Positions 10,946 to 64,000 of a stretch of DNA of 64,000 nucleotides are shown one piece after another. The translations under genes were made by a program, and so were the position numbers. The stretch covers positions 48,815,597 to 48,879,596 of the forward strand of contig CM074512.1 in NCBI GenBank assembly GCA_037379345.1, in the 5' to 3' direction. This stretch comes from Perna viridis. Taxonomy: Eukaryota. The stretch's first letter is position 1; each line of letters begins with the position of its first letter. Below the pieces are notes generated by a model. It was not told the DNA's origin, made no database searches, and saw only the letters and a list, made by a program, of their open reading frames with translations.

Positions 10946-11423
10946 TGTTGCATATGAACATCAAACTACTAACATCCGTCTTTATTGACAATTATCTATA
11001 TCTCTATAATTTGATGAAAAGATCACGACAAATTACGACAAATTACTTTTGTCAAATTTATTTTGAATTATAAATTTTAACATACGTATTTATGCAGCCA
11101 GTACAAGTATGGATACATATTGTTCGAGGGGTTCATATCCTTTGTTGCCGTTATGTTTCGAAATCCAGTGAAACTTGTCTAACCAGAACACTGAATCGTA
11201 CACAATCCCTTCTTGATCAGAAATCAGTTATCAGTTTTTTTTTTATAAAAATCAGACAAAAGGCGATTCATGTATATGTCAAAAACCAACCAACTTTATT
11301 TTAATTTTTATTCAGAAACACAAACAGACAACATAACCATTAATGGTGTGTCATTTGGTAGTTTGCACTTTTGAGACATTGTATGTATTGTAGGGACTGG
11401 TCCTTATTTCTTTACATTATAGA

Positions 11424-11503
11424 CGGGGGATAGCGCGAACGCAGTCCCCCACACTAAAAAATTGCGTACCCGAGTTGCCCACATTTGGGGCAATCGCAGG
11501 CTT
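11424..11503 (-). pseudogene. U1: U1 snRNA 3' fragment (nt 85-164), disrupted by truncated retrotransposon
   Basis: Identical to array U1; nt 51-84 missing. Confidence 0.9.
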
Positions 11504-12908
11504 TTTTTTTTCTTCTCCGAGATGCAAAAATTTAAATGTTTAGACAATAGAGCAATTAACTGTTTAAAACAGTTAACAGTGAAAATTATACTAACAACAC
11601 AATAGGAAATAGAGCACACTCGACAATGACATGTGAGTATATTTTTAGTGTTAATAAAACGTTCTATCAAACAATGAACAGAAAATATTTGAGGCTCTAA
11701 GCATTTAACACTGAACAGAAATAAGCTAAATGAAACACATCTTGTCACGTATAAAATGAAAACGGCAAATATAGAAAGTGAAAAATTACCAATAACACAT
11801 AATAATATACGATAATACAAAATAATAAACGAAAAGAGAAAAATACACCAATAGGTTGAGTAGTCCATGAACAGAAAGGCTATCAAAACAGGGGGGATAG
11901 AATAGTACTCATTGTCCATAATCATTCCGTTTCATTGTCGTTTAACTAACATCAACAGCTGTGTCCTCCGTGTTCTCCGGGGCTGTTATCAAAGAAGGGA
12001 GGAAAGGCTTCATTTCCATTTCCTCCAAATCATCACTACCACCATAATCATTGCACTCCGCCGCTCTTCGCTTCTTGGTTACAGACTCCTCTGTACCATG
12101 CCTCATCCCGCGCTTGTCTTGCGGGGAAGCCATACTCTCCTTCTCCTTCTCTTGCCCCCTCCCGCGCTTGTCTTGCGGGGGGCCCATACCTTCTTTATCC
12201 TGCCCCCTCCCGCGCTTGTCTTGCGGGGGGCCCATACTCTCTTTCTCCTGCCTCCTCCCGCGCCGGTCTTGCTGGGAAACCACATTCACCTCCTGCTCAT
12301 CTGAAACTCTTGCTGCAGCAGCATATGAGGGTTTTCCTTTACTTGGGCAGGTAGCCCTCTGATGACCCACCTCATTACATTTTAGACATAATGAGGGTCT
12401 CCCTCTCATGGTTACAAGTATCCGCCTTCCAGCAACAGTCACCTTGTACGGTACCTTATGAATATCAGAATCTGGCATTTCAACCAGATAATTAATGACA
12501 CCATTTTTTAACTTGGTGCCATCAATCACAGTGTCCTCAAAATCTTTCTTAATGATTTTTCCATAATTTTGTAGGAAATTGTCCACATAACAACTCTTCA
12601 TATGTAGAGGATACCAATGTATTCTAATGGCAACTTGTCTCTTATCTAAACGCTCGAAATGGTATAGACTTCCACCTGGAGCCTCAAAAGTTTGTCCCGT
12701 GCCCAAAGCATCAACTGTATCAGTGGAACTCAACCCAAGATACCAATCTCCACCCTCATCGCACTTATAAATAGCTGTAATCAATGAAGGATTAATGGTT
12801 CCTTTCAGCGCCTCAAGTACTTGTCCTCTGGTATTAAACCACTTTTTCCCAAAATTGACCTTCAGTGTTTTACTCACTGCGTCAGCATCCAAATACTCCA
12901 TTTTGATT
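11504..12908 (-). mobile_element. 3'-truncated type A Tx1-like element (ORF1 plus part of the inter-ORF region) with short poly(A)
   Basis: Matches 29002-30398 with a few substitutions; A10 tail (11502-11511, first 2 nt shared with U1); no ORF2. Confidence 0.92.
11942..12901 (-). CDS. Tx1-like ORF1 protein type A (319 aa, CCHC zinc knuckle)
   Basis: ATG in AAAATGG context; CLKCNEVGHQRATC knuckle; PSYAAAA motif; PPQDKRGRG repeats. Confidence 0.85.
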   Translation of the reverse strand: MEYLDADAVSKTLKVNFGKKWFNTRGQVLEALKGTINPSLITAIYKCDEGGDWYLGLSSTDTVDALGTGQTFEAPGGSLYHFERLDKRQVAIRIHWYPLHMKSCYVDNFLQNYGKIIKKDFEDTVIDGTKLKNGVINYLVEMPDSDIHKVPYKVTVAGRRILVTMRGRPSLCLKCNEVGHQRATCPSKGKPSYAAAARVSDEQEVNVVSQQDRRGRRQEKESMGPPQDKRGRGQDKEGMGPPQDKRGRGQEKEKESMASPQDKRGMRHGTEESVTKKRRAAECNDYGGSDDLEEMEMKPFLPSLITAPENTEDTAVDVS

Positions 12909-12958
12909 CTGGGGGAACCGCCTTTGTGATCACGGTATCCCCTGTACCAGGTAAGTAT
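12909..12958 (-). pseudogene. U1: U1 snRNA 5' fragment (nt 1-50) fused to retrotransposon
   Basis: ATACTTACCTGG...GGTTCCCCCAG followed by element sequence. Confidence 0.92.
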
Positions 12959-13632
12959 GCTGTAGCACTGTATCGCAGGGCGACTATTTTCAACGCATTT
13001 GTAGTTTTCTGGCGGTGCAATCAATACTTTATTATTGCAGAAAAATTCGTAGTTCATACGCAATGATGAATTGTTGTTGACAAGCACGCGGCAAGTATTT
13101 TTTGGCATCTTATTGATTTACAGAAATGTGAAAAATGCACAATTCAGTTCGATACTGAACAAATATGAAAACCGAAGAAAGTCTAATGTTTAGTAACTCA
13201 CTTTGTATACGTATGCCCAACCTTTTCCCCGTTGTGCTATAAGTGAAATAGCCGGGAAAATTCAGTCAGGATTGGCCCAGTAATTTATACTAAAACTGAG
13301 CTTTTTATCACATGAAGTTGGTTTTAATTACCAGTGCATTCATTCTAAAATAGATTTCAATTACTATCAATTTCAAATCCAGTCATACATACATACACTA
13401 ACATGCAGTCGCGCTCGCCAAGAAGTGCCGAAAAGTGTGAACAGTGTTGAACATATGGTAATACTGACACGTGTACATGCAGTTCTCAATTGTCATACAT
13501 GGGTATAAAAAGACAAAATCTGATTTACGGACACATATCGTAGGAAAAATAAACAAATTAAGCGTATTATTTACAGAAAAAGAAAAGCAATTTTAGTAAA
13601 TATAAGTAACAAAAATAACCACATGTTAATCG
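12959..13632. promoter_or_regulatory. 674-bp divergent promoter spacer between the U1 and 7SL 5' ends (representative of all units)
   Basis: PSE-like TTGCACCGCCAGAAAACT at about -62 to -45 of U1 (minus strand); TATA-like TAAATATAAG ~30 nt upstream of 7SL. Both assignments are based on position only. Confidence 0.55.
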
Positions 13633-13930
13633 GTTGGGAGTTGTGGCGTGCTCCTGTGATCCAGCTACTTGGAGACCAGAGTTGGCGGACGGTGTGAGGG
13701 CAGGAGTCCTGGTGGCAGGTGATCTATGTTGAGCGGGCGTCCGCACTAAGATCGGCATCAATATGGGCACACCGAGGGAGCTCAGTGTGACCAGGTTGTC
13801 TAAGGAGGGACGTACAGGCCCAGGGCGGAAACGCAGCAGGCAAAAGTCCCCGTGTCGATCAGTAGTGGGATCGCGCCTGTGAATAGACGCTTGTCAACAG
13901 CCTGTCCAATATAACTGGACTCGACTCTTT
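13633..13930 (+). ncRNA. 7SL: 7SL (SRP) RNA
   Basis: Alu-domain start GTTGGGAGTTGTGGCGTGCTCCTGT; TCCGCACTAAG.TCGGCATCAATATGG; helix 8 CCAGGGCGGAAACGCAGCAGG; GATCAGTAGTGGGATCGCGCCTGTGAATAG; ~298 nt ending in a T run. Confidence 0.95.
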
Positions 13931-13936
13931 TTTTTT
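13928..13936 (+). terminator. Pol III oligo-T terminator of 7SL (representative)
   Basis: T9 run at the 7SL 3' end. Confidence 0.85.
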
Positions 13937-14082: not shown

Positions 14083-14086
14083 CACA

Positions 14087-14133
<47 letters not shown>
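14083..14133. repeat. (CA)n microsatellite in the spacer, variable in length among units (representative)
   Basis: Directly visible; preceded by hairpin CGCCGAGC-ATA-GCTCGGCG at 14061-14079. Confidence 0.95.
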
Positions 14134-14488: not shown

Positions 14489-14652
14489 CGGGGGATAGCG
14501 CGAACGCAGTCCCCCACACTAAAAAATTGCGTACCCGAGTTGCCCACATTTGGGGCAATCGCAGGCTTCAGCCTAACCGGAGTGCAATGGAAAGGCCTCG
14601 ACCTGGGGGAACCGCCTTTGTGATCACGGTATCCCCTGTACCAGGTAAGTAT
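14489..14652 (-). ncRNA. U1: U1 snRNA
   Basis: 164 nt; ATACTTACCTGG 5' end, SL-I loop GATCACAAAG, SL-II loop ATTGCAC, Sm-like AATTTTTTAG, SL-IV GGGGGACTGCGTTCGCGCTATCCCC. Confidence 0.97.
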
Positions 14653-15326
14653 GCTGTAGCACTGTATCGCAGGGCGACTATTTTCAACGCATTTGTAGTT
14701 TTCTGGCGGTGCAATCAATACTTTATTATTGCAGAAAAATTCGTAGTTCATACGCAATGATGAATTGTTGTTGACAAGCACGCGGCAAGTATTTTTTGGC
14801 ATCTTATTGATTTACAGAAATGTGAAAAATGCACAATTCAGTTCGATACTGAACAAATATGAAAACCGAAGAAAGTCTAATGTTTAGTAACTCACTTTGT
14901 ATACGTATGCCCAACCTTTTCCCCGTTGTGCTATAAGTGAAATAGCCGGGAAAATTCAGTCAGGATTGGCCCAGTAATTTATACTAAAACTGAGCTTTTT
15001 ATCACATGAAGTTGGTTTTAATTACCAGTGCATTCATTCTAAAATAGATTTCAATTACTATCAATTTCAAATCCAGTCATACATACATACACTAACATGC
15101 AGTCGCGCTCGCCAAGAAGTGCCGAAAAGTGTGAACAGTGTTGAACATATGGTAATACTGACACGTGTACATGCAGTTCTCAATTGTCATACATGGGTAT
15201 AAAAAGACAAAATCTGATTTACGGACACATATCGTAGGAAAAATAAACAAATTAAGCGTATTATTTACAGAAAAAGAAAAGCAATTTTAGTAAATATAAG
15301 TAACAAAAATAACCACATGTTAATCG

Positions 15327-24795: not shown

Positions 24796-25195
24796 TTTTT
24801 TTTTTTAATTTCAAAAATTTATTCAGTAAAACTTCATACGTAATACATGACAATAAATTAAAACATAAATATCACAGATAATACATTGTGCATGTATACA
24901 GATATGAATAATGTATGCATAAATATCAACTTTGTTATTGGTTAATGCAAGAAAGAACATTGGGATAAATAGTTATATCTCAAATCAATACATGATACAT
25001 AGGTATATAATACCTTCTGACACAACAAAACACCTGAAGAGAAAAAAATTCAAATGCCCTGTTATTATAGTACTCCTGTAAATTACAAGACGCCACCCTC
25101 CCATTAACTCAAATAGGGAAAAAATACAAAAATTAAAACTTAAGGGTACCTTAATAGAATCAAGTTAATAAACCTATTACTTCAAGACTTATAAC

Positions 25196-28100
25196 TCAGA
25201 AAAAAGTGATTTCTAAATCATCATCTTGTACTTTACAGAGTAAGTCACTTGAGCACCAAAACTCAGTGAACTTTAGTATTGGAAATCTATAAAAGTCAGC
25301 TTCAATACGTAATTTCAGCTGCTGTAAATAGAAAATATAAATATCATTTGGTAAAACATGTTTACCATCAAACTTTTTACTATTTCTTTTAATCCATACA
25401 GTTTTACAATATAAAGAAATCAACAATAATACCACACTTTTAGTTCTTCCAACAACATTAATATCTCTAAAAAGTATATGTTTATAATCTAAGGAAATAC
25501 TTCCATTAGATAAAGAGAATATCCAATTCTTAATAAGAACAAATAAGTTTTTGACATCCCTACATTCGCAAAATAAATGAATTAAAGTTTCCGGTTCTCT
25601 GGCACAAAAAGTACATCTATTAGACTTATACACATTATGATTAAATAATAAACTATTAGTAGGCAAAACATTATGCACTACTTTATAAATAACATCTCTA
25701 GAAAAGCGATCAATAAACTTATCAAATACATTTTTAAATACAATTCTAAAATCCACTCCAGGATTTTTTTCAACAACTTTAGGAACATAAATTTCCTTTT
25801 CTAATAGAACCTTATACAAAACTTTTGTAGTTACACCCCTTAGATCTACATCACTACACAATTTTAAATCAATTAAAGCATCAATACAACATCTATAAAA
25901 GGACGAAATGACCTCACTGTGAGGCATGTATAAAGATGTAAACAATTCATTATAAAATCGTAAAGAATAACCAGCCCAGTATATCGCATAATTGACAAAC
26001 TTTACCTGTCTATTGTTAATAATATCGGACAAGTGTTTCAAGCGTAACGCTTTTAACTTTAAATCGATATTCACAATATTCAAACCACCCTGACTTAAAT
26101 CTAAATATAAATTCTTACGACTAATCATTTCTACCTTATCATTCCATATAAACTTAAAAATACAACGTTGGAATTTAATTATCCAATGTTTAGACATCGG
26201 CACAACAGTACCTACATACCACAACTTAGATAAAGCACACGTATTTACAATAATTGATTTTTCTAATAAAGATAAACTTCTCAACCTCCATAATTTCAAG
26301 GTCTTTTCTAACTTAATAAAAATGGGATGCCATACATCATCCTGTGACAAATCATTACCACACTTAATACCTATTAATTTCATACTATCAACAAAATTTA
26401 TACCAAATCTATGATTTTCTTTTCTACATTTCCAAGCACCTAACCACATACCTTTTGTTTTATTTTTATTAAGCTTGGAACCTGAACCTTTACCAAATAA
26501 ATCAATCCAATATAAAAATTTATGTATACTTTTATCAGTAGTAACAATACCAGTACTATCATCGGCAAAAACAGATATTTTACAATTATCAACAGAACCA
26601 GGAATATTCATACCAATAATATCAGTATCGTTCACAACTTTACGAACAAAAGGTTCAAGACATAAAACATATAATAAAGGTGACAAACTACACCCTTGTT
26701 TGACAGATCTAGTGATCCGCACAGGGTCAGAAATAAAATTATTCACAATAACTGATGAAGACAAATCATGATATAAAATCTTGATCCATTTAATTAAATT
26801 CGGACCAAAATTAAATTTTTCTAAAACATTGAATAAAAAGGTATGATTAATACGATCAAATGCTTTCTCTTGATCAAGAGAAATGAAAGCACAATTAATA
26901 TTCTTCTGATTAACATAGTCAATAATGTTCCTATGTAAATGGGCATTGTCTAAAATACTTCTGCCCCTAACAGCACAAGTTTGATCAACACCAATAATTT
27001 TATCAGAAACTAAACCCATTCTATTACAAATAATTTTACTTAAAATCTTAACATCAATATTAATTAAACTAATAGGACGATAACATTTAACATCAAAATG
27101 TCTAGAAACATCTTTACAAATAAGAGATATATAACTTGTTCTTTGACTAACTGACAAAGTATTTTCATCAAAAATATTATCATACAAATTTAATAACAAA
27201 GGTGCAAAAATGTCAATAAATTTGACATAAAATTCTTTGGGCAGTCCATCAGGCCCCGGTGATTTATTGTTATCCATACCTTTAACAGAGTTAATAATTT
27301 CATCCTCAGTAATATTAGATTCACAAATATCTCTATCATCATTATCTAACATAGGTAAATCATCTAAGAAATATTTCATAACATCAAAATCAATAGCTTC
27401 CTCTTTAAATAAATCACTATAAAAGTTTTCAAATTGCTTAATAATATCGCAATGTTTTGTAAAAATACCATCATCATTTCTAATTTCACAAATATTTTTC
27501 TTTTTTCCTCTACGAACTTCCTTTTGGAAAAAATATTGACTCGGAAGTTCACTATTATCTAGTAAATTTGCTTTACTTCTAATTTGAGCACCTCTAAAAT
27601 CTTTAACATAATAATCTTTAATCTCATTCTTAAGTACATCAATTTGTTCTGAAAAATTACCTGGCGTTTTCTTTTCTAATTTACATAAATGAAAATATCG
27701 TTTCTCTAATTGTCTAATTACAGTATACTTAAGTTTATTTTTCTTTTTACAATAATCAATACAAAAGACCTTAATATTTTCTTTAAAATAATCCCACATA
27801 TCAATACACATATCTAAACCATCGATAAAGTTAATAAACCACTCTCGAAAAGAAATACAAAAAGCTCTATCGTCTAATATAGAGGTGTTTAATTTCCAAT
27901 AACCTTCACCTCTCTTTACATCAGTGTTATTTACAAACGATACATAAACACAATCATGATCAGAAAAAGCAAAAGGTAGAACGTCACAATTCTTAACAAA
28001 AGGTTTTAATTCACTAGAAAAGTACATGCAATCTAATCGACACGCAATATTATTACCCCGCCAGGTGACACATTTACAATTAGGATATAAATACCTATAA

Positions 28101-28696
28101 ACGTCACAAAGGTCAAAATCAGATACAATGGTTCTTAATTTGTCAACACCTGTAGTACCTAAATGGGGATTTCCCCCGATCTTATCAAGTTTTGGATCCA
28201 TAATACAATTAAAATCACCACCAAATATTTTACAATTCTGTGTCATTAGAAAAGGATATATATACTCAAAGAATTCTTTTCTATCACTACTATCATTAGG
28301 TGCATAAATATTAAACAATCTATACGGAACATTATCAATTTTAACATCAATAAATTGAAAACGTCCGTCTATATCTCTATGATATTTAACTACAACAAAA
28401 TCTATAGAATGAGAAATAAAAATAGCTGTTCCCCTACTTAAATTAGAACCGAAGTTCCAAAAACATCTATACATATGTAAGTATTTATCTAAAATCTTAC
28501 TTACTTTAGAATTCGAAACATGAGTTTCTTGTAAAAATAATATATCTATATATTTACGCAAACAAAATTGCTTCAATACATACTGACATTTCACATCTAA
28601 TAATCCATTAATATTCAAAGTAGCACAATTGATTATGTTTTCTTTTTCAGATAAAGTCGTAATAATATTGATAATTAAGAACGGTATATAACTCAA
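25196..28696 (-). CDS. ORF2: AP-like endonuclease, reverse transcriptase and C-terminal zinc finger (Tx1/L1 type); frame opens at TTG
   Basis: NINGL, LQETH, NIYAPN, GGDFN, SDHD; KSPGPDG, YRPISL, DQEKAFD, QGCSLSP, FADD; CTFC..ETLIHLFCEC. Confidence 0.95.
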   Translation of the reverse strand: MSYIPFLIINIITTLSEKENIINCATLNINGLLDVKCQYVLKQFCLRKYIDILFLQETHVSNSKVSKILDKYLHMYRCFWNFGSNLSRGTAIFISHSIDFVVVKYHRDIDGRFQFIDVKIDNVPYRLFNIYAPNDSSDRKEFFEYIYPFLMTQNCKIFGGDFNCIMDPKLDKIGGNPHLGTTGVDKLRTIVSDFDLCDVYRYLYPNCKCVTWRGNNIACRLDCMYFSSELKPFVKNCDVLPFAFSDHDCVYVSFVNNTDVKRGEGYWKLNTSILDDRAFCISFREWFINFIDGLDMCIDMWDYFKENIKVFCIDYCKKKNKLKYTVIRQLEKRYFHLCKLEKKTPGNFSEQIDVLKNEIKDYYVKDFRGAQIRSKANLLDNSELPSQYFFQKEVRRGKKKNICEIRNDDGIFTKHCDIIKQFENFYSDLFKEEAIDFDVMKYFLDDLPMLDNDDRDICESNITEDEIINSVKGMDNNKSPGPDGLPKEFYVKFIDIFAPLLLNLYDNIFDENTLSVSQRTSYISLICKDVSRHFDVKCYRPISLINIDVKILSKIICNRMGLVSDKIIGVDQTCAVRGRSILDNAHLHRNIIDYVNQKNINCAFISLDQEKAFDRINHTFLFNVLEKFNFGPNLIKWIKILYHDLSSSVIVNNFISDPVRITRSVKQGCSLSPLLYVLCLEPFVRKVVNDTDIIGMNIPGSVDNCKISVFADDSTGIVTTDKSIHKFLYWIDLFGKGSGSKLNKNKTKGMWLGAWKCRKENHRFGINFVDSMKLIGIKCGNDLSQDDVWHPIFIKLEKTLKLWRLRSLSLLEKSIIVNTCALSKLWYVGTVVPMSKHWIIKFQRCIFKFIWNDKVEMISRKNLYLDLSQGGLNIVNIDLKLKALRLKHLSDIINNRQVKFVNYAIYWAGYSLRFYNELFTSLYMPHSEVISSFYRCCIDALIDLKLCSDVDLRGVTTKVLYKVLLEKEIYVPKVVEKNPGVDFRIVFKNVFDKFIDRFSRDVIYKVVHNVLPTNSLLFNHNVYKSNRCTFCAREPETLIHLFCECRDVKNLFVLIKNWIFSLSNGSISLDYKHILFRDINVVGRTKSVVLLLISLYCKTVWIKRNSKKFDGKHVLPNDIYIFYLQQLKLRIEADFYRFPILKFTEFWCSSDLLCKVQDDDLEITFF

Positions 28697-29415
28697 AACG
28701 AATTAGCCAAATTATAATTACAGGTAACTTGCAAGAAATTAAATGTCTGGTTAGGGAAAAGAACAAAGAAACTAATTGCACTGTAAAAATCTAAATGTCC
28801 AAACAAAAGACAAAACACAGTAGATTTAAAAAATCTTTTGAAAATGCAACAGTATTTCAAACGGTCACAATGAAAGAATATGTAACGAAATTTTATCGTC
28901 TGCAAACAAAGATAAATTACAGGTAAGTTATAAACATTATGATAAGAAAAGTTTAAATACCTAAAGGAAGAAAATTGTTCAAGGTGAACTGATACAATAG
29001 ACTTCTCCGACATGCAAAAATTTAAATGTTTAGACAATAGAGCAATTAACTGTTTAAAACAGTTAACAGTGAAAATGATACTAACAAAACAATAGAAAAT
29101 AAAGCACACTCGACAATGACATGTGAGTATATTTTTAGTGTTAATAAAACGTTCTATCAAACAATGAACAGAAAATATTTGAGGCTCTAAGCATTTAACA
29201 CTGAACAGAAATAAGCTAAATGAAACACATCTTGTCACGTATAAAATGAAAACGGCAAATATAGAAAGTGAAAAATTACCAATAACACATAATAATATAC
29301 GATAATACAAAATAATAAACGAAAAGAGAAAAATACACCAATAGGTTGAGTAGTCCATGAACAGAAAGGCTATCAAAACAGGGGGGATAGAATAGTACTC
29401 ATTGTCCATAATCAT
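28693..29415 (-). CDS. Putative third ORF (240 aa, very hydrophobic) between ORF1 and ORF2
   Basis: ATG 16 nt after the ORF1 stop; fills the whole inter-ORF region; its TGA overlaps the ORF2 TTG. Confidence 0.45.
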   Translation of the reverse strand: MIMDNEYYSIPPVLIAFLFMDYSTYWCIFLFSFIILYYRILLCVIGNFSLSIFAVFILYVTRCVSFSLFLFSVKCLEPQIFSVHCLIERFINTKNILTCHCRVCFIFYCFVSIIFTVNCFKQLIALLSKHLNFCMSEKSIVSVHLEQFSSFRYLNFSYHNVYNLPVIYLCLQTIKFRYIFFHCDRLKYCCIFKRFFKSTVFCLLFGHLDFYSAISFFVLFPNQTFNFLQVTCNYNLANSF

Positions 29416-29431
29416 TCCGTTTCATTGTCGT

Positions 29432-30391
29432 TTAACTAACATCAACAGCTGTGTCCTCCGTGTTCTCCGGGGCTGTTATCAAAGAAGGGAGGAAAGGCTT
29501 CATTTCCATTTCCTCCAAATCATCACTACCACCATAATCATTGCACTCCGCCGCTCTTCGCTTCTTGGTTACAGACTCCTCTGTACCATGCCTCATCCCG
29601 CGCTTGTCTTGCGGGGAAGCCATACTCTCCTTCTCCTTCTCTTGCCCCCTCCCGCGCTTGTCTTGCGGGGGGCCCATACCTTCTTTATCCTGCCCCCTCC
29701 CGCGCTTGTCTTGCGGGGGGCCCATACTCTCTTTCTCCTGCCTCCTCCCGCGCTGGTCTTGCTGGGAAACCACATTCACCTCCTGCTCATCTGAAACTCT
29801 TGCTGCAGCAGCATATGAGGGTTTTCCTTTACTTGGGCAGGTAGCCCTCTGATGACCCACCTCATTACATTTTAGACATAATGAGGGTCTCCCTCTCATG
29901 GTTACAAGTATCCGCCTTCCAGCAACAGTCACCTTGTACGGTACCTTATGAACATCAGAATCTGGCATTTCAACCAGATAATTAATGACACCATTTTTTA
30001 ACTTGGTGCCATCAATCACAGTGTCCTCAAAATCTTTCTTAATGATTTTTCCATAATTTTGTAGGAAATTGTCCACATAACAACTCTTCATATGTAGAGG
30101 ATACCAATGTATTCTAATGGCAACTTGTCTCTTATCTAAACGCTCGAAATGGTATAGACTTCCACCTGGAGCCTCAAAAGTTTGTCCCGTGCCCAAAGCA
30201 TCAACTGTATCAGTGGAACTCAACCCAAGATACCAATCTCCACCCTCATCGCACTTATAAATAGCTGTAATCAATGAAGGATTAATGGTTCCTTTCAGCG
30301 CCTCAAGTACTTGTCCTCTGGTATTAAACCACTTTTTCCCAAAATTGACCTTCAGTGTTTTACTCACTGCGTCAGCATCCAAATACTCCAT
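29432..30391 (-). CDS. Tx1-like ORF1 protein type A (319 aa)
   Basis: CCHC knuckle CLKCNEVGHQRATC; ATG 7 nt inside the element. Confidence 0.88.
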   Translation of the reverse strand: MEYLDADAVSKTLKVNFGKKWFNTRGQVLEALKGTINPSLITAIYKCDEGGDWYLGLSSTDTVDALGTGQTFEAPGGSLYHFERLDKRQVAIRIHWYPLHMKSCYVDNFLQNYGKIIKKDFEDTVIDGTKLKNGVINYLVEMPDSDVHKVPYKVTVAGRRILVTMRGRPSLCLKCNEVGHQRATCPSKGKPSYAAAARVSDEQEVNVVSQQDQRGRRQEKESMGPPQDKRGRGQDKEGMGPPQDKRGRGQEKEKESMASPQDKRGMRHGTEESVTKKRRAAECNDYGGSDDLEEMEMKPFLPSLITAPENTEDTAVDVS

Positions 30392-30398
30392 TTTGATT

Positions 30399-41683: not shown

Positions 41684-42655
41684 TTAACAGTCCGCGTCTA
41701 CATCAATTGCTTCCTCTTCAGGGTTTCTCATTCCCGGTGGAATTAAAAGTGGCCTCTCTAAAGCTTCTTTCTTCACCCTCTTCTCAACGTCTGGTTGTTC
41801 CTTGTTGTCATCTCTGGCTCTTTTAGCATCAGTACCTCGGTCCCTGGAGTAGGAACCTTCACTGCTATATTCAGTACCTCGGCCCTCCTCCACGGGACCT
41901 TCACTGCCGGTTGATACATCAGTGCCCGATCGGGCACCTTCATCACTAGTCGGTACATCGGATCCCTGGGTGGATCCTTCACCGCTGGTTGGTACATCAG
42001 ACCCCTCCTGGGATCCTTCACCACTCGTTGTTGACTCGGTGCTCGGCTGAGCACTTTCATCGCGTCTAGGTCGCCGACTAGTCGCCGCTGCCTTGCCACA
42101 TTTGGCTCTCACATGACCAAATTCTCCACACTTAAGGCATTGAGCTTGCCTTCCTGCAACGGTAATCAAGACATCCCTACCATAAATTTTAGCTCGGTAT
42201 GGCAAACTGCTATATTGACTGTCGGTTGAATACATTTTCCCAGAAACTACACCAGTTTTATACGTAACCTCTTCGAAGGTGTCAGTATCATGCCTCAGTG
42301 CAACCTCACTTCCGTATTTTCTTAGTCCCTCTTTCAACAGGTCTAGTTTTAAGTGCATTGGGAACCAATGCACTTTAAAACGAACTAAACGCCTATCTAT
42401 CCGGCTAAAGAAGAGTGGAACTCCTTTCGCCTGGAAAGACCGCTCCATCGTAAGCCTCTCTACTGTGAGTGGGTGTTTGAAGGAAACAAACCAGTCACCA
42501 TCTTCACCACACTTGTAGACGGCGTCTATCTCGTCACCATTGACTACTTCCTTCAAATATGGTATAACTTCACGTTGAGTAAACAATCTCTTCTTCAAAC
42601 CAATTGCCAACCGGAGAGTCCTACCGGACACACTTCCATCTACATAGTGGTCCAT
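41684..42655 (-). CDS. Tx1-like ORF1 protein type B (323 aa)
   Basis: CLKCGEFGHVRAKC knuckle; VYKCGEDGDWF and VHWFPMH homologous to type A; EGS..GSDVPTS repeats. Confidence 0.88.
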   Translation of the reverse strand: MDHYVDGSVSGRTLRLAIGLKKRLFTQREVIPYLKEVVNGDEIDAVYKCGEDGDWFVSFKHPLTVERLTMERSFQAKGVPLFFSRIDRRLVRFKVHWFPMHLKLDLLKEGLRKYGSEVALRHDTDTFEEVTYKTGVVSGKMYSTDSQYSSLPYRAKIYGRDVLITVAGRQAQCLKCGEFGHVRAKCGKAAATSRRPRRDESAQPSTESTTSGEGSQEGSDVPTSGEGSTQGSDVPTSDEGARSGTDVSTGSEGPVEEGRGTEYSSEGSYSRDRGTDAKRARDDNKEQPDVEKRVKKEALERPLLIPPGMRNPEEEAIDVDADC

Positions 42656-42709
42656 TCTGGTAAATAAGGGATTCCTCACGGAATACACCTTATGTATGAG
42701 TACAGAGGA

Positions 42710-47834: not shown

Positions 47835-48240
47835 TTTTTTTTTTTTTTTTAATTTCAAACAATTTATTCAGTAAAACTTCATACGTAATACATGACAATA
47901 AATTAAAACATAAATATCACAGATAATACATTGTGCATGTATACAGATATGAATAATGTATGCATAAATATCAACTTTGTTATTGGTTAATGCAAGAAAG
48001 AACATTGGGATAAATAGTTATATCTCAAATCAATACATGATACATAGGTATATAATACCTTCTGACACAACAAAACACCTGAAGAGAAAAAAATTCAAAT
48101 GCCCTGTTATTATAGTACTCCTGTAAATTACAAGACGCCACCCTCCCATTAACTCAAATAGGGAAAAAATACAAAAATTAAAACTTAAGGGTACCTTAAT
48201 AGAATCAAGTTAATAAACCTATTACTTCAAGACTTATAAC

Positions 48241-51200
48241 TCAGAAAAAAGTGATTTCTAAATCATCATCTTGTACTTTACAGAGTAAGTCACTTGAGCA
48301 CCAAAACTCAGTGAACTTTAGTATTGGAAATCTATAAAAGTCAGCTTCAATACGTAATTTCAGCTGCTGTAAATAGAAAATATAAATATCATTTGGTAAA
48401 ACATGTTTACCATCAAACTTTTTACTATTTCTTTTAATCCATACAGTTTTACAATATAAAGAAATCAACAATAATACCACACTTTTAGTTCTTCCAACAA
48501 CATTAATATCTCTAAAAAGTATATGTTTATAATCTAAGGAAATACTTCCATTAGATAAAGAGAATATCCAATTCTTAATAAGAACAAATAAGTTTTTGAC
48601 ATCCCTACATTCGCAAAATAAATGAATTAAAGTTTCCGGTTCTCTGGCACAAAAAGTACATCTATTAGACTTATACACATTATGATTAAATAATAAACTA
48701 TTAGTAGGCAAAACATTATGCACTACTTTATAAATAACATCTCTAGAAAAGCGATCAATAAACTTATCAAATACATTTTTAAATACAATTCTAAAATCCA
48801 CTCCAGGATTTTTTTCAACAACTTTAGGAACATAAATTTCCTTTTCTAATAGAACCTTATACAAAACTTTTGTAGTTACACCCCTTAGATCTACATCACT
48901 ACACAATTTTAAATCAATTAAAGCATCAATACAACATCTATAAAAGGACGAAATGACCTCACTGTGAGGCATGTATAAAGATGTAAACAATTCATTATAA
49001 AATCGTAAAGAATAACCAGCCCAGTATATCGCATAATTGACAAACTTTACCTGTCTATTGTTAATAATATCGGACAAGTGTTTCAAGCGTAACGCTTTTA
49101 ACTTTAAATCGATATTCACAATATTCAAACCACCCTGACTTAAATCTAAATATAAATTCTTACGACTAATCATTTCTACCTTATCATTCCATATAAACTT
49201 AAAAATACAACGTTGGAATTTAATTATCCAATGTTTAGACATCGGCACAACAGTACCTACATACCACAACTTAGATAAAGCACACGTATTTACAATAATT
49301 GATTTTTCTAATAAAGATAAACTTCTCAACCTCCATAATTTCAAGGTCTTTTCTAACTTAATAAAAATGGGATGCCATACATCATCCTGTGACAAATCAT
49401 TACCACACTTAATACCTATTAATTTCATACTATCAACAAAATTTATACCAAATCTATGATTTTCTTTTCTACATTTCCAAGCACCTAACCACATACCTTT
49501 TGTTTTATTTTTATTAAGCTTGGAACCTGAACCTTTACCAAATAAATCAATCCAATATAAAAATTTATGTATACTTTTATCAGTAGTAACAATACCAGTA
49601 CTATCATCGGCAAAAACAGATATTTTACAATTATCAACAGAACCAGGAATATTCATACCAATAATATCAGTATCGTTCACAACTTTACGAACAAAAGGTT
49701 CAAGACATAAAACATATAATAAAGGTGACAAACTACACCCTTGTTTGACAGATCTAGTGATCCGCACAGGGTCAGAAATAAAATTATTCACAATAACTGA
49801 TGAAGACAAATCATGATATAAAATCTTGATCCATTTAATTAAATTCGGACCAAAATTAAATTTTTCTAAAACATTGAATAAAAAGGTATGATTAATACGA
49901 TCAAATGCTTTCTCTTGATCAAGAGAAATGAAAGCACAATTAATATTCTTCTGATTAACATAGTCAATAATGTTCCTATGTAAATGGGCATTGTCTAAAA
50001 TACTTCTGCCCCTAACAGCACAAGTTTGATCAACACCAATAATTTTATCAGAAACTAAACCCATTCTATTACAAATAATTTTACTTAAAATCTTAACATC
50101 AATATTAATTAAACTAATAGGACGATAACATTTAACATCAAAATGTCTAGAAACATCTTTACAAATAAGAGATATATAACTTGTTCTTTGACTAACTGAC
50201 AAAGTATTTTCATCAAAAATATTATCATACAAATTTAATAACAAAGGTGCAAAAATGTCAATAAATTTGACATAAAATTCTTTGGGCAGTCCATCAGGCC
50301 CCGGTGATTTATTGTTATCCATACCTTTAACAGAGTTAATAATTTCATCCTCAGTAATATTAGATTCACAAATATCTCTATCATCATTATCTAACATAGG
50401 TAAATCATCTAAGAAATATTTCATAACATCAAAATCAATAGCTTCCTCTTTAAATAAATCACTATAAAAGTTTTCAAATTGCTTAATAATATCGCAATGT
50501 TTTGTAAAAATACCATCATCATTTCTAATTTCACAAATATTTTTCTTTTTTCCTCTACGAACTTCCTTTTGGAAAAAATATTGACTCGGAAGTTCACTAT
50601 TATCTAGTAAATTTGCTTTACTTCTAATTTGAGCACCTCTAAAATCTTTAACATAATAATCTTTAATCTCATTCTTAAGTACATCAATTTGTTCTGAAAA
50701 ATTACCTGGCGTTTTCTTTTCTAATTTACATAAATGAAAATATCGTTTCTCTAATTGTCTAATTACAGTATACTTAAGTTTATTTTTCTTTTTACAATAA
50801 TCAATACAAAAGACCTTAATATTTTCTTTAAAATAATCCCACATATCAATACACATATCTAAACCATCGATAAAGTTAATAAACCACTCTCGAAAAGAAA
50901 TACAAAAAGCTCTATCGTCTAATATAGAGGTGTTTAATTTCCAATAACCTTCACCTCTCTTTACATCAGTGTTATTTACAAACGATACATAAACACAATC
51001 ATGATCAGAAAAAGCAAAAGGTAGAACGTCACAATTCTTAACAAAAGGTTTTAATTCACTAGAAAAGTACATGCAATCTAATCGACACGCAATATTATTA
51101 CCCCGCCAGGTGACACATTTACAATTAGGATATAAATACCTATAAACGTCACAAAGGTCAAAATCAGATACAATGGTTCTTAATTTGTCAACACCTGTAG

Positions 51201-51741
51201 TACCTAAATGGGGATTTCCCCCGATCTTATCAAGTTTTGGATCCATAATACAATTAAAATCACCACCAAATATTTTACAATTCTGTGTCATTAGAAAAGG
51301 ATATATATACTCAAAGAATTCTTTTCTATCACTACTATCATTAGGTGCATAAATATTAAACAATCTATACGGAACATTATCAATTTTAACATCAATAAAT
51401 TGAAAACGTCCGTCTATATCTCTATGATATTTAACTACAACAAAATCTATAGAATGAGAAATAAAAATAGCTGTTCCCCTACTTAAATTAGAACCGAAGT
51501 TCCAAAAACATCTATACATATGTAAGTATTTATCTAAAATCTTACTTACTTTAGAATTCGAAACATGAGTTTCTTGTAAAAATAATATATCTATATATTT
51601 ACGCAAACAAAATTGCTTCAATACATACTGACATTTCACATCTAATAATCCATTAATATTCAAAGTAGCACAATTGATTATGTTTTCTTTTTCAGATAAA
51701 GTCGTAATAATATTGATAATTAAGAACGGTATATAACTCAA
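48241..51741 (-). CDS. ORF2 (APE endonuclease-RT-zinc finger), type A
   Basis: Same protein as 25196-28696. Confidence 0.95.
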   Translation of the reverse strand: MSYIPFLIINIITTLSEKENIINCATLNINGLLDVKCQYVLKQFCLRKYIDILFLQETHVSNSKVSKILDKYLHMYRCFWNFGSNLSRGTAIFISHSIDFVVVKYHRDIDGRFQFIDVKIDNVPYRLFNIYAPNDSSDRKEFFEYIYPFLMTQNCKIFGGDFNCIMDPKLDKIGGNPHLGTTGVDKLRTIVSDFDLCDVYRYLYPNCKCVTWRGNNIACRLDCMYFSSELKPFVKNCDVLPFAFSDHDCVYVSFVNNTDVKRGEGYWKLNTSILDDRAFCISFREWFINFIDGLDMCIDMWDYFKENIKVFCIDYCKKKNKLKYTVIRQLEKRYFHLCKLEKKTPGNFSEQIDVLKNEIKDYYVKDFRGAQIRSKANLLDNSELPSQYFFQKEVRRGKKKNICEIRNDDGIFTKHCDIIKQFENFYSDLFKEEAIDFDVMKYFLDDLPMLDNDDRDICESNITEDEIINSVKGMDNNKSPGPDGLPKEFYVKFIDIFAPLLLNLYDNIFDENTLSVSQRTSYISLICKDVSRHFDVKCYRPISLINIDVKILSKIICNRMGLVSDKIIGVDQTCAVRGRSILDNAHLHRNIIDYVNQKNINCAFISLDQEKAFDRINHTFLFNVLEKFNFGPNLIKWIKILYHDLSSSVIVNNFISDPVRITRSVKQGCSLSPLLYVLCLEPFVRKVVNDTDIIGMNIPGSVDNCKISVFADDSTGIVTTDKSIHKFLYWIDLFGKGSGSKLNKNKTKGMWLGAWKCRKENHRFGINFVDSMKLIGIKCGNDLSQDDVWHPIFIKLEKTLKLWRLRSLSLLEKSIIVNTCALSKLWYVGTVVPMSKHWIIKFQRCIFKFIWNDKVEMISRKNLYLDLSQGGLNIVNIDLKLKALRLKHLSDIINNRQVKFVNYAIYWAGYSLRFYNELFTSLYMPHSEVISSFYRCCIDALIDLKLCSDVDLRGVTTKVLYKVLLEKEIYVPKVVEKNPGVDFRIVFKNVFDKFIDRFSRDVIYKVVHNVLPTNSLLFNHNVYKSNRCTFCAREPETLIHLFCECRDVKNLFVLIKNWIFSLSNGSISLDYKHILFRDINVVGRTKSVVLLLISLYCKTVWIKRNSKKFDGKHVLPNDIYIFYLQQLKLRIEADFYRFPILKFTEFWCSSDLLCKVQDDDLEITFF

Positions 51742-52460
51742 AACGAATTAGCCAAATTATAATTACAGGTAACTTGCAAGAAATTAAATGTCTGGTTAGG
51801 GAAAAGAACAAAGAAACTAATTGCACTGTAAAAATCTAAATGTCCAAACAAAAGACAAAACACAGTAGATTTAAAAAATCTTTTGAAAATGCAACAGTAT
51901 TTCAAACGGTCACAATGAAAGAATATGTAACGAAATTTTATCGTCTGCAAACAAAGATAAATTACAGGTAAGTTATAAACATTATGATAAGAAAAGTTTA
52001 AATACCTAAAGGAAGAAAATTGTTCAAGGTGAACTGATACAATAGACTTCTCCGACATGCAAAAATTTAAATGTTTAGACAATAGAGCAATTAACTGTTT
52101 AAAACAGTTAACAGTGAAAATGATACTAACAAAACAATAGAAAATAAAGCACACTCGACAATGACATGTGAGTATATTTTTAGTGTTAATAAAACGTTCT
52201 ATCAAACAATGAACAGAAAATATTTGAGGCTCTAAGCATTTAACACTGAACAGAAATAAGCTAAATGAAACACATCTTGTCACGTATAAAATGAAAACGG
52301 CAAATATAGAAAGTGAAAAATTACCAATAACACATAATAATATACGATAATACAAAATAATAAACGAAAAGAGAAAAATACACCAATAGGTTGAGTAGTC
52401 CATGAACAGAAAGGCTATCAAAACAGGGGGGATAGAATAGTTCTCATTGTCCATAATCAT
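51738..52460 (-). CDS. Putative third ORF (240 aa, hydrophobic)
   Basis: As 28693-29415, with one Y>N difference. Confidence 0.45.
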   Translation of the reverse strand: MIMDNENYSIPPVLIAFLFMDYSTYWCIFLFSFIILYYRILLCVIGNFSLSIFAVFILYVTRCVSFSLFLFSVKCLEPQIFSVHCLIERFINTKNILTCHCRVCFIFYCFVSIIFTVNCFKQLIALLSKHLNFCMSEKSIVSVHLEQFSSFRYLNFSYHNVYNLPVIYLCLQTIKFRYIFFHCDRLKYCCIFKRFFKSTVFCLLFGHLDFYSAISFFVLFPNQTFNFLQVTCNYNLANSF

Positions 52461-52476
52461 TCCGTTTCATTGTCGT

Positions 52477-53436
52477 TTAACTAACATCAACAGCTGTGTC
52501 CTCCGTGTTCTCCGGGGCTGTTATCAAAGAAGGGAGGAAAGGCTTCATTTCCATTTCCTCCAAATCATCACTACCACCATAATCATTGCACTCCGCCGCT
52601 CTTCGCTTCTTGGTTACAGACTCCTCTGTACCATGCCTCATCCCGCGCTTGTCTTGCGGGGAAGCCATACTCTCCTTCTCCTTCTCTTGCCCCCTCCCGC
52701 GCTTGTCTTGCGGGGGGCCCATACCTTCTTTATCCTGCCCCCTCCCGCGCTTGTCTTGCGGGGGGCCCATACTCTCTTTCTCCTGCCTCCTCCCGCGCTG
52801 GTCTTGCTGGGAAACCACATTCACCTCCTGCTCATCTGAAACTCTTGCTGCAGCAGCATATGAGGGTTTTCCTTTACTTGGGCAGGTAGCCCTCTGATGA
52901 CCCACCTCATTACATTTTAGACATAATGAGGGTCTCCCTCTCATGGTTACAAGTATCCGCCTTCCAGCAACAGTCACCTTGTACGGTACCTTATGAACAT
53001 CAGAATCTGGCATTTCAACCAGATAATTAATGACACCATTTTTTAACTTGGTGCCATCAATCACAGTGTCCTCAAAATCTTTCTTAATGATTTTTCCATA
53101 ATTTTGTAGGAAATTGTCCACATAACAACTCTTCATATGTAGAGGATACCAATGTATTCTAATGGCAACTTGTCTCTTATCTAAACGCTCGAAATGGTAT
53201 AGACTTCCACCTGGAGCCTCAAAAGTTTGTCCCGTGCCCAAAGCATCAACTGTATCAGTGGAACTCAACCCAAGATACCAATCTCCACCCTCATCGCACT
53301 TATAAATAGCTGTAATCAATGAAGGATTAATGGTTCCTTTCAGCGCCTCAAGTACTTGTCCTCTGGTATTAAACCACTTTTTCCCAAAATTGACCTTCAG
53401 TGTTTTACTCACTGCGTCAGCATCCAAATACTCCAT
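52477..53436 (-). CDS. Tx1-like ORF1 protein type A (319 aa)
   Basis: As 29432-30391. Confidence 0.88.
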   Translation of the reverse strand: MEYLDADAVSKTLKVNFGKKWFNTRGQVLEALKGTINPSLITAIYKCDEGGDWYLGLSSTDTVDALGTGQTFEAPGGSLYHFERLDKRQVAIRIHWYPLHMKSCYVDNFLQNYGKIIKKDFEDTVIDGTKLKNGVINYLVEMPDSDVHKVPYKVTVAGRRILVTMRGRPSLCLKCNEVGHQRATCPSKGKPSYAAAARVSDEQEVNVVSQQDQRGRRQEKESMGPPQDKRGRGQDKEGMGPPQDKRGRGQEKEKESMASPQDKRGMRHGTEESVTKKRRAAECNDYGGSDDLEEMEMKPFLPSLITAPENTEDTAVDVS

Positions 53437-53443
53437 TTTGATT

Positions 53444-61925: not shown

Positions 61926-62597
61926 GCTGTAGCACTGTATCGCAGGGCGACTATTTTCAACGCATTTGTAGTTTTCTGGCGGTGCAATCAATACTTTATT
62001 ATTGCAGAAAAATTCGTAGTTCATACGCAATGATGAATTGTTGTTGACAAGCACGCGGCAAGTATTTTTTGGCATCTTATTGATTTACAGAAATGTGAAA
62101 AATGCACAATTCAGTTCGATACTGAACAAATATGAAAACCGAAGAAAGTCTAATGTTTAGTAACTCACTTTGTATACGTATGCCCAACCTTTTCCCCGTT
62201 GTGCTATAAGTGAAATAGCCGGGAAAATTCAGTCAGGATTGGCCCAGTAATTTATACTAAAACTGAGCTTTTTATCACATGAAGTTGGTTTTAATTACCA
62301 GTGCATTCATTCTAAAATAGATTTCAATTACTATCAATTTCAAATCCAGTCATACATACATACACTAACATGCAGTCGCGCTCGCCAAGAAGTGCCGAAA
62401 AGTGTGAACAGTGTTGAACATATGGTAATACTGACACGTGTACATGCAGTTCTCAATTGTCATACATGGGTATAAAAAGACAAAATCTGATTTACGGACA
62501 CATATCGTAGGAAAAATAAACAAATTAAGCGTATTATTTACAGAAAAAGAAAAGCAATTTTAAAATATAAGTAACAAAAATAACCACATGTTAATCG

Positions 62598-62895
62598 GTT
62601 GGGAGTTGTGGCGTGCTCCTGTGATCCAGCTACTTGGAGACCAGAGTTGGCGGACGGTGTGAGGGCAGGAGTCCTGGTGGCAGGTGATCTATGTTGAGCG
62701 GGCGTCCGCACTAAGATCGGCATCAATATGGGCACACCGAGGGAGCTCAGTGTGACCAGGTTGTCTAAGGAGGGACGTACAGGCCCAGGGCGGAAACGCA
62801 GCAGGCAAAAGTCCCCGTGTCGATCAGTAGTGGGATCGCGCCTGTGAATAGACGCTTGTCAACAGCCTGTCCAATATAACTGGACTCGACTCTTT
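62598..62895 (+). ncRNA. 7SL: 7SL (SRP) RNA
   Basis: Array copy. Confidence 0.95.
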
Positions 62896-63054
62896 TTTTT
62901 TCTTTCCCATACTAAAAAAACTAAAAAAAAAAATAAAAAAAATTCAATTAATACGAATCGTATCTCATCTGAGGAACCTGCAAGACGTCTCATATTTCAG
63001 AACACATTTTCCTTCCCAAAATTTTCGCGCCGAGCATAGCTCGGCGTTTCACAC

Positions 63055-63086
<32 letters not shown>

Positions 63087-63441
63087 ATCAAGCACTCAAG
63101 CACAAATATATATCAATATCAATATCAACATCCATCTCAAACATTTTCAATACACTTCCATACCATGTCAATACTCAAACATACAACCTACCTACCTACC
63201 TACAAACTATCTACATCTAACACTCTTTTTCCATTTATTCCACTCTCACCTCAGTCTCATCTATTCACTTACTAGTAAGCTTTTCTTTTCACACATAATC
63301 CACGCATCATCAACACAAACTTATACCACGCATGCATTTTCATTCAAATGTAGCCTGTCTAATTCATTATAAGAACACAAGTTGGCAGATTGATCATTGT
63401 ATGCATTGTAGGGACTGGTCCTTATTTCTTTACATTATAGA

Positions 63442-63605
63442 CGGGGGATAGCGCGAACGCAGTCCCCCACACTAAAAAATTGCGTACCCGAGTTGCCCAC
63501 ATTTGGGGCAATCGCAGGCTTCAGCCTAACCGGAGTGCAATGGAAAGGCCTCGACCTGGGGGAACCGCCTTTGTGATCACGGTATCCCCTGTACCAGGTA
63601 AGTAT
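63442..63605 (-). ncRNA. U1: U1 snRNA
   Basis: Array copy. Confidence 0.97.
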
Positions 63606-64000
63606 GCTGTAGCACTGTATCGCAGGGCGACTATTTTCAACGCATTTGTAGTTTTCTGGCGGTGCAATCAATACTTTATTATTGCAGAAAAATTCGTAGT
63701 TCATACGCAATGATGAATTGTTGTTGACAAGCACGCGGCAAGTATTTTTTGGCATCTTATTGATTTACAGAAATGTGAAAAATGCACAATTCAGTTCGAT
63801 ACTGAACAAATATGAAAACCGAAGAAAGTCTAATGTTTAGTAACTCACTTTGTATACGTATGCCCAACCTTTTCCCCGTTGTGCTATAAGTGAAATAGCC
63901 GGGAAAATTCAGTCAGGATTGGCCCAGTAATTTATACTAAAACTGAGCTTTTTATCACATGAAGTTGGTTTTAATTACCAGTGCATTCATTCTAAAATAG

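Follow-up and report, generated by a model that had tools for sequence, protein, structure and literature searches.

A highly uniform tandem array of head-to-head U1 snRNA and variant 7SL RNA genes, entered by a LINE in U1, in Perna viridis

We analysed a stretch of 64,000 nucleotides from Perna viridis (the window), which holds a tandem repeat of U1 snRNA genes and 7SL (SRP) RNA genes in head-to-head arrangement, with units far more alike inside the array than to other loci. A preliminary description had counted at least 20 near-identical divergent units. Rfam matches together with a unit comparison bear this out, with 20 units in the window and 27 in total; the array ends 10.7 kb past the window edge (G000:C2:48890258). 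The Rfam models gave 20 full-length Metazoa_SRP matches on the plus strand (271–274.5 bits, cut-off 70) and 20 U1 matches on the minus strand, 17 intact (146–148.5 bits) and three partial (77–81 bits, cut-off 69.5). A U1 5' end is located on the opposite strand upstream of every 7SL gene (20/20). By family, U1 would be transcribed by Pol II and 7SL by Pol III. The U1 gene matches RF00003 over its full length (148.5 bits versus 69.5) and has the 5' splice-site pairing end and the Sm site. The gene of about 298 nt, proposed earlier to be 7SL, indeed matches the metazoan SRP covariance model at full length (274.5 bits versus 70). For the coordinates of all features see Table 1.

Table 1. Features of the U1/7SL array in the window (positions are those of the window).
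Feature	Position	Strand	Remarks
U1/7SL tandem array	11377..64000	.	unit about 1.68–1.72 kb
U1 3' remnant, nt 85–164, left array edge	11424..11503	-	
Deleted LINE copy, subfamily A	11504..12908	-	first 1397 bases with ORF1, then short A-run
U1 nt 1–50 at head of deleted LINE copy	12909..12958	-	
First 7SL (SRP RNA) gene, array-type variant, then T-run	13633..13930	+	RF00017, 274.5 bits
(CA)n microsatellite between 7SL and U1 3' ends	14083..14133	+	
First intact U1 snRNA gene	14489..14652	-	16 further intact copies in window
Head-to-head spacer, example copy	14653..15326	.	674 bp
Predicted snRNA-type (PSE-like) U1 promoter	14699..14735	-	TCTGC at -83, ACC at -58
TATA-like box, 7SL -36	15291..15300	+	consensus match only
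Other 19 7SL genes, starts	15327, 17017, 18699, 20401, 22095, 23803, 31123, 32829, 34536, 36228, 43439, 45157, 46857, 54168, 55848, 57546, 59226, 60906, 62598	+	
LINE copy A1 (subfamily A, full length), inside U1	24796..30398	-	11-bp target duplication (U1 nt 40–50), poly(A)
A1 ORF1	29432-30391	-	
A1 ORF2 open frame	25196-28702	-	AP endonuclease, RT, zf-RVT
Full-length LINE, subfamily B, in U1	37207..42709	-	16-bp target duplication (U1 nt 40–55)
LINE copy A2 (subfamily A, full length), inside U1	47835..53443	-	10-bp target duplication

Each of the 27 units shows 0–2 substitutions, plus a variable (CA)n tract whose length differences explain most of the variation in unit length. The plus-strand open reading frames of 150–186 aa in the units are frames spanning this microsatellite. 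Outside the array, identity drops to ~90% between a unit and a decayed orphan pair at C2:63.6 Mb, and to 84% between the array 7SL and the solitary 7SL gene on C1. The spacer, first described as invariant at 674 bp, has this length in 19 of 20 copies (672 bp in the other) but is near-invariant rather than invariant, 15 of the 20 being identical and four having one substitution. Similarly, the array is present over the whole range initially assigned to it and extends beyond, yet it is interrupted by a retrotransposon in four of the 20 U1 genes. Co-amplification of U1 and 7SL, as proposed in the preliminary description, is supported by the uniformity of the units and by the fact that 27 of the 29 full-length 7SL genes found genome-wide sit in this array. 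Its uniformity would be maintained by unequal crossover or gene conversion.

Such a locus might be an assembly artefact, or the 7SL copy a pseudogene or SINE riding in a U1 repeat. Units 20–26, with equal microsatellite length and 0–1 substitutions, are so alike that the exact count may hinge on the assembly. Contigs from outside the assembly, however, link the parts. A single contig covers the U1 5' part, the spacer and 7SL in X1, a possible source of the assembly, and again in X7, which comes from another study. In X11 (other study) the same parts are joined stepwise by two overlapping contigs, and X10 (other study) contains U1-spacer and spacer-7SL contigs. The unit contigs of X1 and X10 are tens of times deeper than the flank contigs. 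RNA reads from three runs (X21–X23; X15–X20, at 0.14–0.18 of words, were left out) place U1 on one strand and 7SL mostly on the opposite strand in all three, the U1 reads being not separable among this array, C1 and C9. The full-length 7SL match, compensatory changes and RNA reads speak against a pseudogene. We regard the array as virtually certain to be real, and the artefact or pseudogene explanation, barely credible by now, as largely refuted already.

The arrayed 7SL is a structurally intact variant and a divergent paralogue. It covers RF00017 model positions 1–299, Alu and S domains included, with 101 of 120 model pairs standard and is followed by a T-run, and array-type reads are present in all three RNA runs (tissue not specified). 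A comparison with the C1 gene resulted in 250 of 297 identical positions (16% divergence), leaving 47 diagnostic ones. Thirty of 119 model pairs differ between the two; 21 of these are paired in both, nine by two-sided change. In the orphan copy five of six changed pairs are broken. A single metagenome 7SL (n = 1) agrees with the solitary gene at 28 resolved sites and with the array at 11, which suggests that it is the array type that was derived. This was the one locus returned by an exact-pattern scan of the metagenome contigs; it is cut at the 7SL 5' end, has no U1 downstream and does not bear on the linkage either way.

It is quite likely that U1 and 7SL were co-amplified with separate promoters. 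In each of the seven other Pol II snRNA promoters, TTTGC lies at -82 to -84 and ACC at -57 to -59. The best site of the spacer faces U1, shows the same spacing and has one mismatch in the upstream block. A profile of the seven promoters, which is modest in leave-one-out (two of seven not below the 5% level) and blind to distal enhancers, scored this site at 16.1 and the 7SL side at -5.6, the 99th percentile of 842 flank windows being 10.0. An arrayed-versus-solitary promoter signature (A versus T after TGC; five versus three genes, post hoc) was discarded, as it failed on solitary U4.

The preliminary description suggested shared upstream elements. In its full form this would make the spacer one regulatory unit coupling Pol II (U1) and Pol III (7SL), with the linkage under selection. 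The fixed divergent orientation agrees with this, as does the orphan pair at C2:63.6 Mb, where both genes and both proximal spacer ends are kept and ~390 bp of the spacer middle are lost. This pair also indicates that the U1-7SL linkage predates the present homogenisation. The single promoter-like site of the spacer, however, faces U1. A search of the spacer for octamer and CRE motifs gave nothing for the 7SL side, the octamer being absent, and an upstream alignment of the arrayed 7SL with solitary 7SL or U6 gave similarity no better than shuffles. Moreover, the U1 array on C9 lacks 7SL and the C1 7SL gene lacks U1 (10 kb examined). Two variable sites fall in the spacer and four in the shorter tail-to-tail stretch. 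These numbers are too small to reveal added constraint, and conservation of the spacer does not clearly exceed that of the remaining unit. We consider a shared regulatory spacer improbable, and sharing of upstream elements found no support. In the favoured scenario of separate promoters, U1 and 7SL would have come to adjoin and then been amplified jointly, each predicted to retain its own promoter.

The interrupting retrotransposon is an APE-type, Tx1/Keno-like LINE located at U1 nt 39–55. ORF1 contains a zinc knuckle and ORF2 an AP endonuclease, an RT and a C-terminal zinc domain; poly(A) and a target duplication complete the element. Among solved relatives, L1 ORF2p ranks best (E 8e-71). The two subfamilies have a common ORF2 and different ORF1s: between A and B the 3' 3.85 kb are 98% identical, ORF1 just 29%. 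Copies A1 and A2 differ by two substitutions. In the deleted copy U1 nt 51–84 are gone together with the rest of the element. The 3' end of the LINE joins U1 at nt 40–41 in every case. Among the close insertions with readable junction, 8 of 11 are at U1 nt 39–55 and three in a different arrayed family, where they occupy a similar motif. The latter argue against exclusive use of U1; that the LINE is U1-targeted is nevertheless very likely.

The start of ORF1 is the first AUG behind U1 nt 1–50 or 1–55, which makes transcription from the U1 promoter likely. The LINE would thereby be made as a U1-headed RNA and inserted by target-primed reverse transcription. We consider its use of the U1 promoter probable. 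The three RNA runs contained very few element reads and no U1-LINE joint reads.

Related LINEs occur in other snRNA arrays of this genome, with 58–67% ORF2 identity and different snRNA targets. A sister element in U2 (67% ORF2 identity) has its 3' junction at nt 37. In a FastTree phylogeny employing 41 of the 120 listed database matches, the elements from U1, U2, U4 and U5 form one clade with seven database proteins (SH-like support 100). The distance from ACC to the insertion site is 97 for U1, 93 for U2, 96 for U4, 96 for both C8 insertions and 101 for the C9 family; the U5 site is at nt 52. Targeting may be by sequence alone rather than by position relative to the promoter. The unannotated arrayed RNA on C8 and C9 gave weak and inconsistent fold z-scores (-0.9 to -3.0 versus mononucleotide shuffles). 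No named Tx1 or Keno proteins were present among the 120 database matches listed or the 10 clusters examined. From its anatomy and the traits of the family we assign the U1 LINE tentatively to Tx1.

Comparable elements are Keno, of the Tx1 clade and with an AP endonuclease, which resides in U2 snRNA genes, along with Utopia (U2) and Dada-U1 (PMC4494074, PMC4640811, PMC8869645). In PMC4640811 the snRNA-targeting elements are limited to Keno and Utopia (both U2) plus Dada-U1 and Dada-U6, Dada being a DNA transposon, and a figure legend of PMC4494074 includes a U5 target among the Tx1 families. Keno resembles our LINE in having AP endonuclease and RT, poly(A) and an insertion point that is fixed and close to the snRNA gene's 5' end. 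The LINE is not Keno proper, as its target is U1, with relatives in U4 and U5, and U2 holds a sister element. A partial literature search, with Repbase outside it, returned no published U1- or U4-targeting LINE. A single genome whose closely related LINE endonucleases differ in their snRNA targets offers a compact system for studying changes in target specificity.

The same partial search found no published U1-7SL repeat unit, in agreement with the preliminary description, which knew of none. The unit is a new pairing among Pol II/Pol III gene linkages. Repeats of 5S rDNA with snRNA genes, as cited in PMC6204057, are U1-5S in Asellus aquaticus, U2-5S in Crassostrea and U1/U2/U5-5S in Solea senegalensis. 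There too, each tandem unit pairs an snRNA gene of the Pol II type with a Pol III partner, and a microsatellite is named in the Crassostrea title. In contrast to those cited repeats, the Pol III partner here is 7SL, a divergent paralogue, and not 5S. A trypanosome cluster likewise contains U1 and 7SL at one locus. According to PMC2695483, however, that is a single Pol III-transcribed cluster of 13 genes with tRNAs, whereas here a two-gene unit is repeated in tandem.

Arrays exist in this genome for each of the five major snRNAs. The 56 U1 5' ends comprise 27 in this array, 27 on C9, one orphan and one solitary gene. A clustered variant together with a distinct solitary gene is found for 7SL (84%), for U2 (at least 46 on C12 and two singles, 92%, with 15 diagnostic positions) and weakly for U4 (34 arrayed and one solitary, four differences), but not for U1 of this array, which is identical to the solitary U1 on C1. 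RNase P RNA and MRP RNA have two genes each (82% and 90% identical, respectively).

Zebrafish has 67 clustered maternal SRP RNA genes versus one somatic gene (bioRxiv 10.1101/869651), a published exception to the earlier remark that 7SL is usually low-copy. Its maternal RNase P RNA is 80% identical (10.1101/869651), its U1 pair has 11 differences and its snRNA repeats are broken by retrotransposons (10.1101/858944). Both papers term this maternal/somatic RNA system unique. Perna viridis is similar in its clustered variants with a solitary gene, its dissimilar second RNase P RNA gene and its retrotransposon-interrupted snRNA repeats. It differs in being an invertebrate, in the distance between the 7SL types (16% versus 7% in zebrafish), in having 7SL in one repeat unit with U1, and in the identity of arrayed and solitary U1.

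By analogy with the zebrafish layout, the array may be the high-output egg/early-embryo equivalent of the U1 and 7SL genes that stand singly elsewhere in the genome. We give such an egg or embryo bias an even chance; the identity of arrayed and solitary U1, unlike zebrafish pairs, and the array-type 7SL reads in three of three runs of unspecified tissue are points against it. The same two observations, and the arraying of all five major snRNAs, would suit an ordinary housekeeping array, co-amplified through drift and concerted evolution and expressed in all tissues, with the solitary genes as leftover or minor copies. According to PMC6204057, small-RNA genes have repeatedly become linked in repeats and lost such linkage again. 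This explanation is less easily reconciled with two 7SL types persisting at 16% divergence with compensatory changes, or with the fact that U2, RNase P and MRP likewise come in two types. A weak hint in the same direction is that array-type 7SL is shallower than U1 in all three runs (highest bins 2.97, 6.73 and 11 versus 5.52, 48.2 and 19; library type and tissue not specified). We judge the housekeeping array rather unlikely and lean slightly towards the complete scenario of a homogenised, co-amplified array of 27 U1/variant-7SL units serving as egg/embryo-type counterpart of the solitary genes.

More tentatively, and with somewhat less than even confidence, Perna viridis could be an invertebrate with a zebrafish-style dual RNA set, in which an egg-type SRP RNA, 16% off the body type, was amplified with U1. 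In addition, one LINE lineage would have spread across arrayed U1, U2, U4, U5 and an unannotated arrayed RNA family, landing ~37–52 bases behind snRNA-type starts and being read from their promoters. If the arrayed, diverged 7SL and the solitary 7SL do form a dual system, maternal/somatic RNAs of the zebrafish type extend to invertebrates. The 47 diagnostic 7SL positions make this checkable in RNA datasets already available for eggs and tissues.

Rfam searches of the window identified 20 full-length metazoan SRP RNA (7SL) genes, all on the plus strand, together with 20 minus-strand matches to U1. Upstream of every 7SL gene lies a U1 5' end at a distance of 674 bp (672 bp in one case), and the spacers are identical in 15 of the 20 units. 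Over the complete array of 27 units, U1 nt 1–39, the spacer, 7SL and the tail-to-tail part differ by only 0–2 substitutions, indels aside; differences in unit length stem chiefly from a (CA)n tract. The preliminary description had noted at least 20 near-identical units of divergent U1 and 7SL genes; this is borne out, and the 7SL gene fits the metazoan SRP model. Its invariant 674-bp spacer is near-invariant in length and sequence. A fragment of approximately 63 bp of spacer with the first 123 bases of an array-type 7SL was observed at 5185–5370 of a separate locus (L008, G000:C2:47.14 Mb). The features of the genome assembly (G000) discussed here are collected in the table.

Arrayed and related loci in the P. 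viridis assembly (C, contigs; L, loci)
Feature	Location	Details
U1/7SL array	window 11377 to G000:C2:48890258	27 7SL genes, 27 U1 5' ends
Second U1 array	G000:C9:30.014–30.063 Mb (L004, L005, L019–L021)	27 5' ends; 1071-bp unit; without 7SL
LINE relative in U4 genes	L029–L030, G000:C5:23.83–23.84 Mb	duplication ~22 bp (U4 nt 38–59)
Keno-like LINEs in U2 array	L028 and L035, G000:C12:15.12–15.30 Mb	two lineages, ORF1 65% identical
Tandem LINE copies in U5 array	L031, G000:C12:3.59 Mb	
Tandem gene family, no annotation	L024–L026 (G000:C8:43.54–43.57 Mb), G000:C8:44.53–44.62 Mb, L027 (G000:C9:13.95 Mb)	
RNase P RNA, two genes	within L039–L042	82% identical; each single at own locus
RNase MRP RNA, two genes	within L039–L042	90% identical; each single at own locus

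The U1 5' part, spacer and 7SL are joined on one 1005-base contig of sequencing run X1, from which the assembly may derive, and on one 983-base contig of X7, which belongs to a different study. The same joining spans two contigs in X11 and several in X10. Unit contigs reach a depth of 2441 in X1 (four flank contigs: 59–75) and 2592 in X10 (flank contigs: 31–35). In X1, a pair of allelic contigs at 5197 suggests that the flank contigs represent single haplotypes; this would correspond to roughly 20 (X1) and 40 (X10) units per haploid set, and otherwise to about twice as many. Contig depth does not equal copy number, and these values agree with the 27 units in order of size alone. Across three RNA runs (X21–X23) of this organism, the first mates of U1 reads map to the plus strand and 7SL reads mostly to the minus strand, as expected of divergent genes in stranded libraries. 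The U1 reads may originate from other U1 loci as well; the 7SL reads, placed at 95% likeness, are array-type in all three runs. The U1-7SL array is real, expressed and homogenised. At window 31168 (7SL nt 46), 18 of 20 sense reads of X23 carry an A>G change that is found in 1/6 reads of X21 and 0/3 of X22 and is absent from both the C1 7SL and the decayed orphan copy described below; it may reflect an array-wide allele in the X23 individual or editing.

In line with the preliminary description, no earlier account of a U1-7SL repeat unit was found in print among papers free of subscription. In trypanosomes, the available part of PMC2695483 places U1 and 7SL together in a single Pol III cluster, whereas those of P. 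viridis form repeat units in a tandem array. Linkages of 5S with snRNA genes occur in an isopod, oysters and sole, as cited in the accessible text of PMC6204057. U1-7SL is a new pairing within this known kind of linked repeat.

All seven other Pol II snRNA genes used as reference (two U1, three U2, U4 and U5) contain TTTGC at −82 to −84 and ACC at −57 to −59. Scanning the 674-bp spacer with a profile of these genes gave a single strong site, located at −58 relative to U1, with a score of 16.1; the 99th percentile of 842 flank windows was 10.0. No other site on the two strands exceeds 6.0, and at the equivalent distance the score on the 7SL side is −5.6. Leave-one-out scores ranged from 4.4 to 15.7, with two of the seven not below the 5% level; in a solitary U4 gene, found after the profile was built, ACC lies at −58 and TTTG at −83. 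Upstream of 7SL there is a TATA-like box at −36 and nothing else promoter-like, and the region showed no likeness beyond shuffles to the upstream regions of solitary 7SL or U6. One site facing U1 and none on the 7SL side point to separate proximal promoters as the most likely arrangement, judged by sequence. Shared upstream elements, as suggested earlier, find no support in the orientation of the sole strong snRNA-type site, although a distal element may exist.

A LINE that we label as Tx1-type by its anatomy has disrupted four of the array's 27 U1 genes. Three copies are full length (5.5–5.6 kb) with poly(A) tails, an open ORF1 (zinc knuckle) and an open ORF2 (AP endonuclease, RT, zf-RVT); the fourth, at the left edge of the array, is a deleted copy. 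Target duplications comprise 10, 11 and 16 bp, starting at U1 nt 40 or 41. Two subfamilies, A and B, are 98% identical over the 3' 3.85 kb and switch sequence near the ORF2 start, their ORF1s being 29% identical. Both also occupy the identical site in the second U1 array, which carries a two-base compensatory U1 variant and an unrelated ~3.2 kb insertion built of 1.34-kb repeats. Among all 37 candidates, each of which was scored, 11 are close insertions whose junction could be read: eight lie in U1 and three, all 5'-truncated, in the C8/C9 tandem gene family; this count omits a decayed B-type fragment behind a C9 U1 fragment and a 67–82% relative on C11 with unassigned target. The first AUG beyond U1 nt 1–50 (A) or 1–55 (B) opens ORF1 and lies 7 (A) or 54 (B) bases inside the element; the U1 promoter ahead of it is undamaged. 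In the simplest reading, the LINE transcript would be headed by U1 and driven from the U1 promoter; the three RNA runs contained no reads showing such a transcript.

The C8/C9 family has units of ~995 and 970 bp (837 candidates, 40 of them scored) with an snRNA-type promoter motif, a TATA box and a ~150-base conserved region. Its target sequence resembles the U1 site, and it is a secondary target of the U1 LINE. No Rfam match was obtained up to E = 1, and the family is a candidate new small RNA.

The U2, U4 and U5 arrays contain relatives of the LINE, whose 3' junctions fall at nt 37 (U2), 38 (U4) and ~52 (U5). In a FastTree analysis of 46 rows, the U1, U2, U4 and U5 elements form one group with seven database proteins (support 100). 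The limpet Patella caerulea, at 41% identity, is the sole eukaryote named among the protein matches listed; its 11 copies carry adjoining locus tags. Additional mollusc Tx1 families with specific targets are present in Repbase, and an element aimed at U1 may already have an entry there. A U4-targeting LINE was not found in the literature searched. For 2015, the available text of PMC4640811 limits its list of elements that target snRNA genes to Keno, Utopia, Dada-U1 and Dada-U6; a U5 target is named in the accessible part of PMC4494074, and the corresponding portions of PMC8869645 and PMC12274263 name no further ones.

The main interest of the array lies in this U1-targeted LINE and in its divergent 7SL. 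The genome contains at least 29 full-length 7SL genes: 27 in the array, one on C1, and a decayed orphan at C2:63.6 Mb paired with a decayed U1. Array and C1 types (each >270 bits) have 250 of 297 positions in common. They differ in 30 model pairs, of which 21 are paired in both, nine by two-sided change, whereas five of six changed pairs are broken in the orphan. Judged by this retained pairing, structural selection has maintained both types. An unrelated metagenome 7SL matches C1 at 28 sites and the array at 11. In zebrafish, 67 clustered SRP RNA genes are active in eggs before one solitary gene takes over, and a maternal RNase P RNA is 80% identical (available part of 10.1101/869651); maternal snRNA types are clustered and somatic types dispersed according to the accessible text of 10.1101/858944, which also cites variants regulated by stage in sea urchin, Xenopus and Drosophila. 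P. viridis likewise has array plus solitary gene(s) for U1, U4 and U2, and two dissimilar genes each for RNase P and MRP RNA, a likeness of gene layout. However, arrayed and solitary U1 are identical in sequence, and array-type 7SL occurs in all three RNA runs. By analogy, the divergent arrayed 7SL of this invertebrate is a candidate for an SRP RNA of the egg type.

Outside the array, window 6043–6557, ~7440–7680 and 8310–8780 contain interspersed repeats of very high copy (summed contig depth up to millions), which are possibly SINE-like. On the minus strand we observed a C1q-domain ORF (window 4918–5382) and a weak DUF4371 match (1025–2784) within what looks like a decayed transposase, presumably of hAT type.
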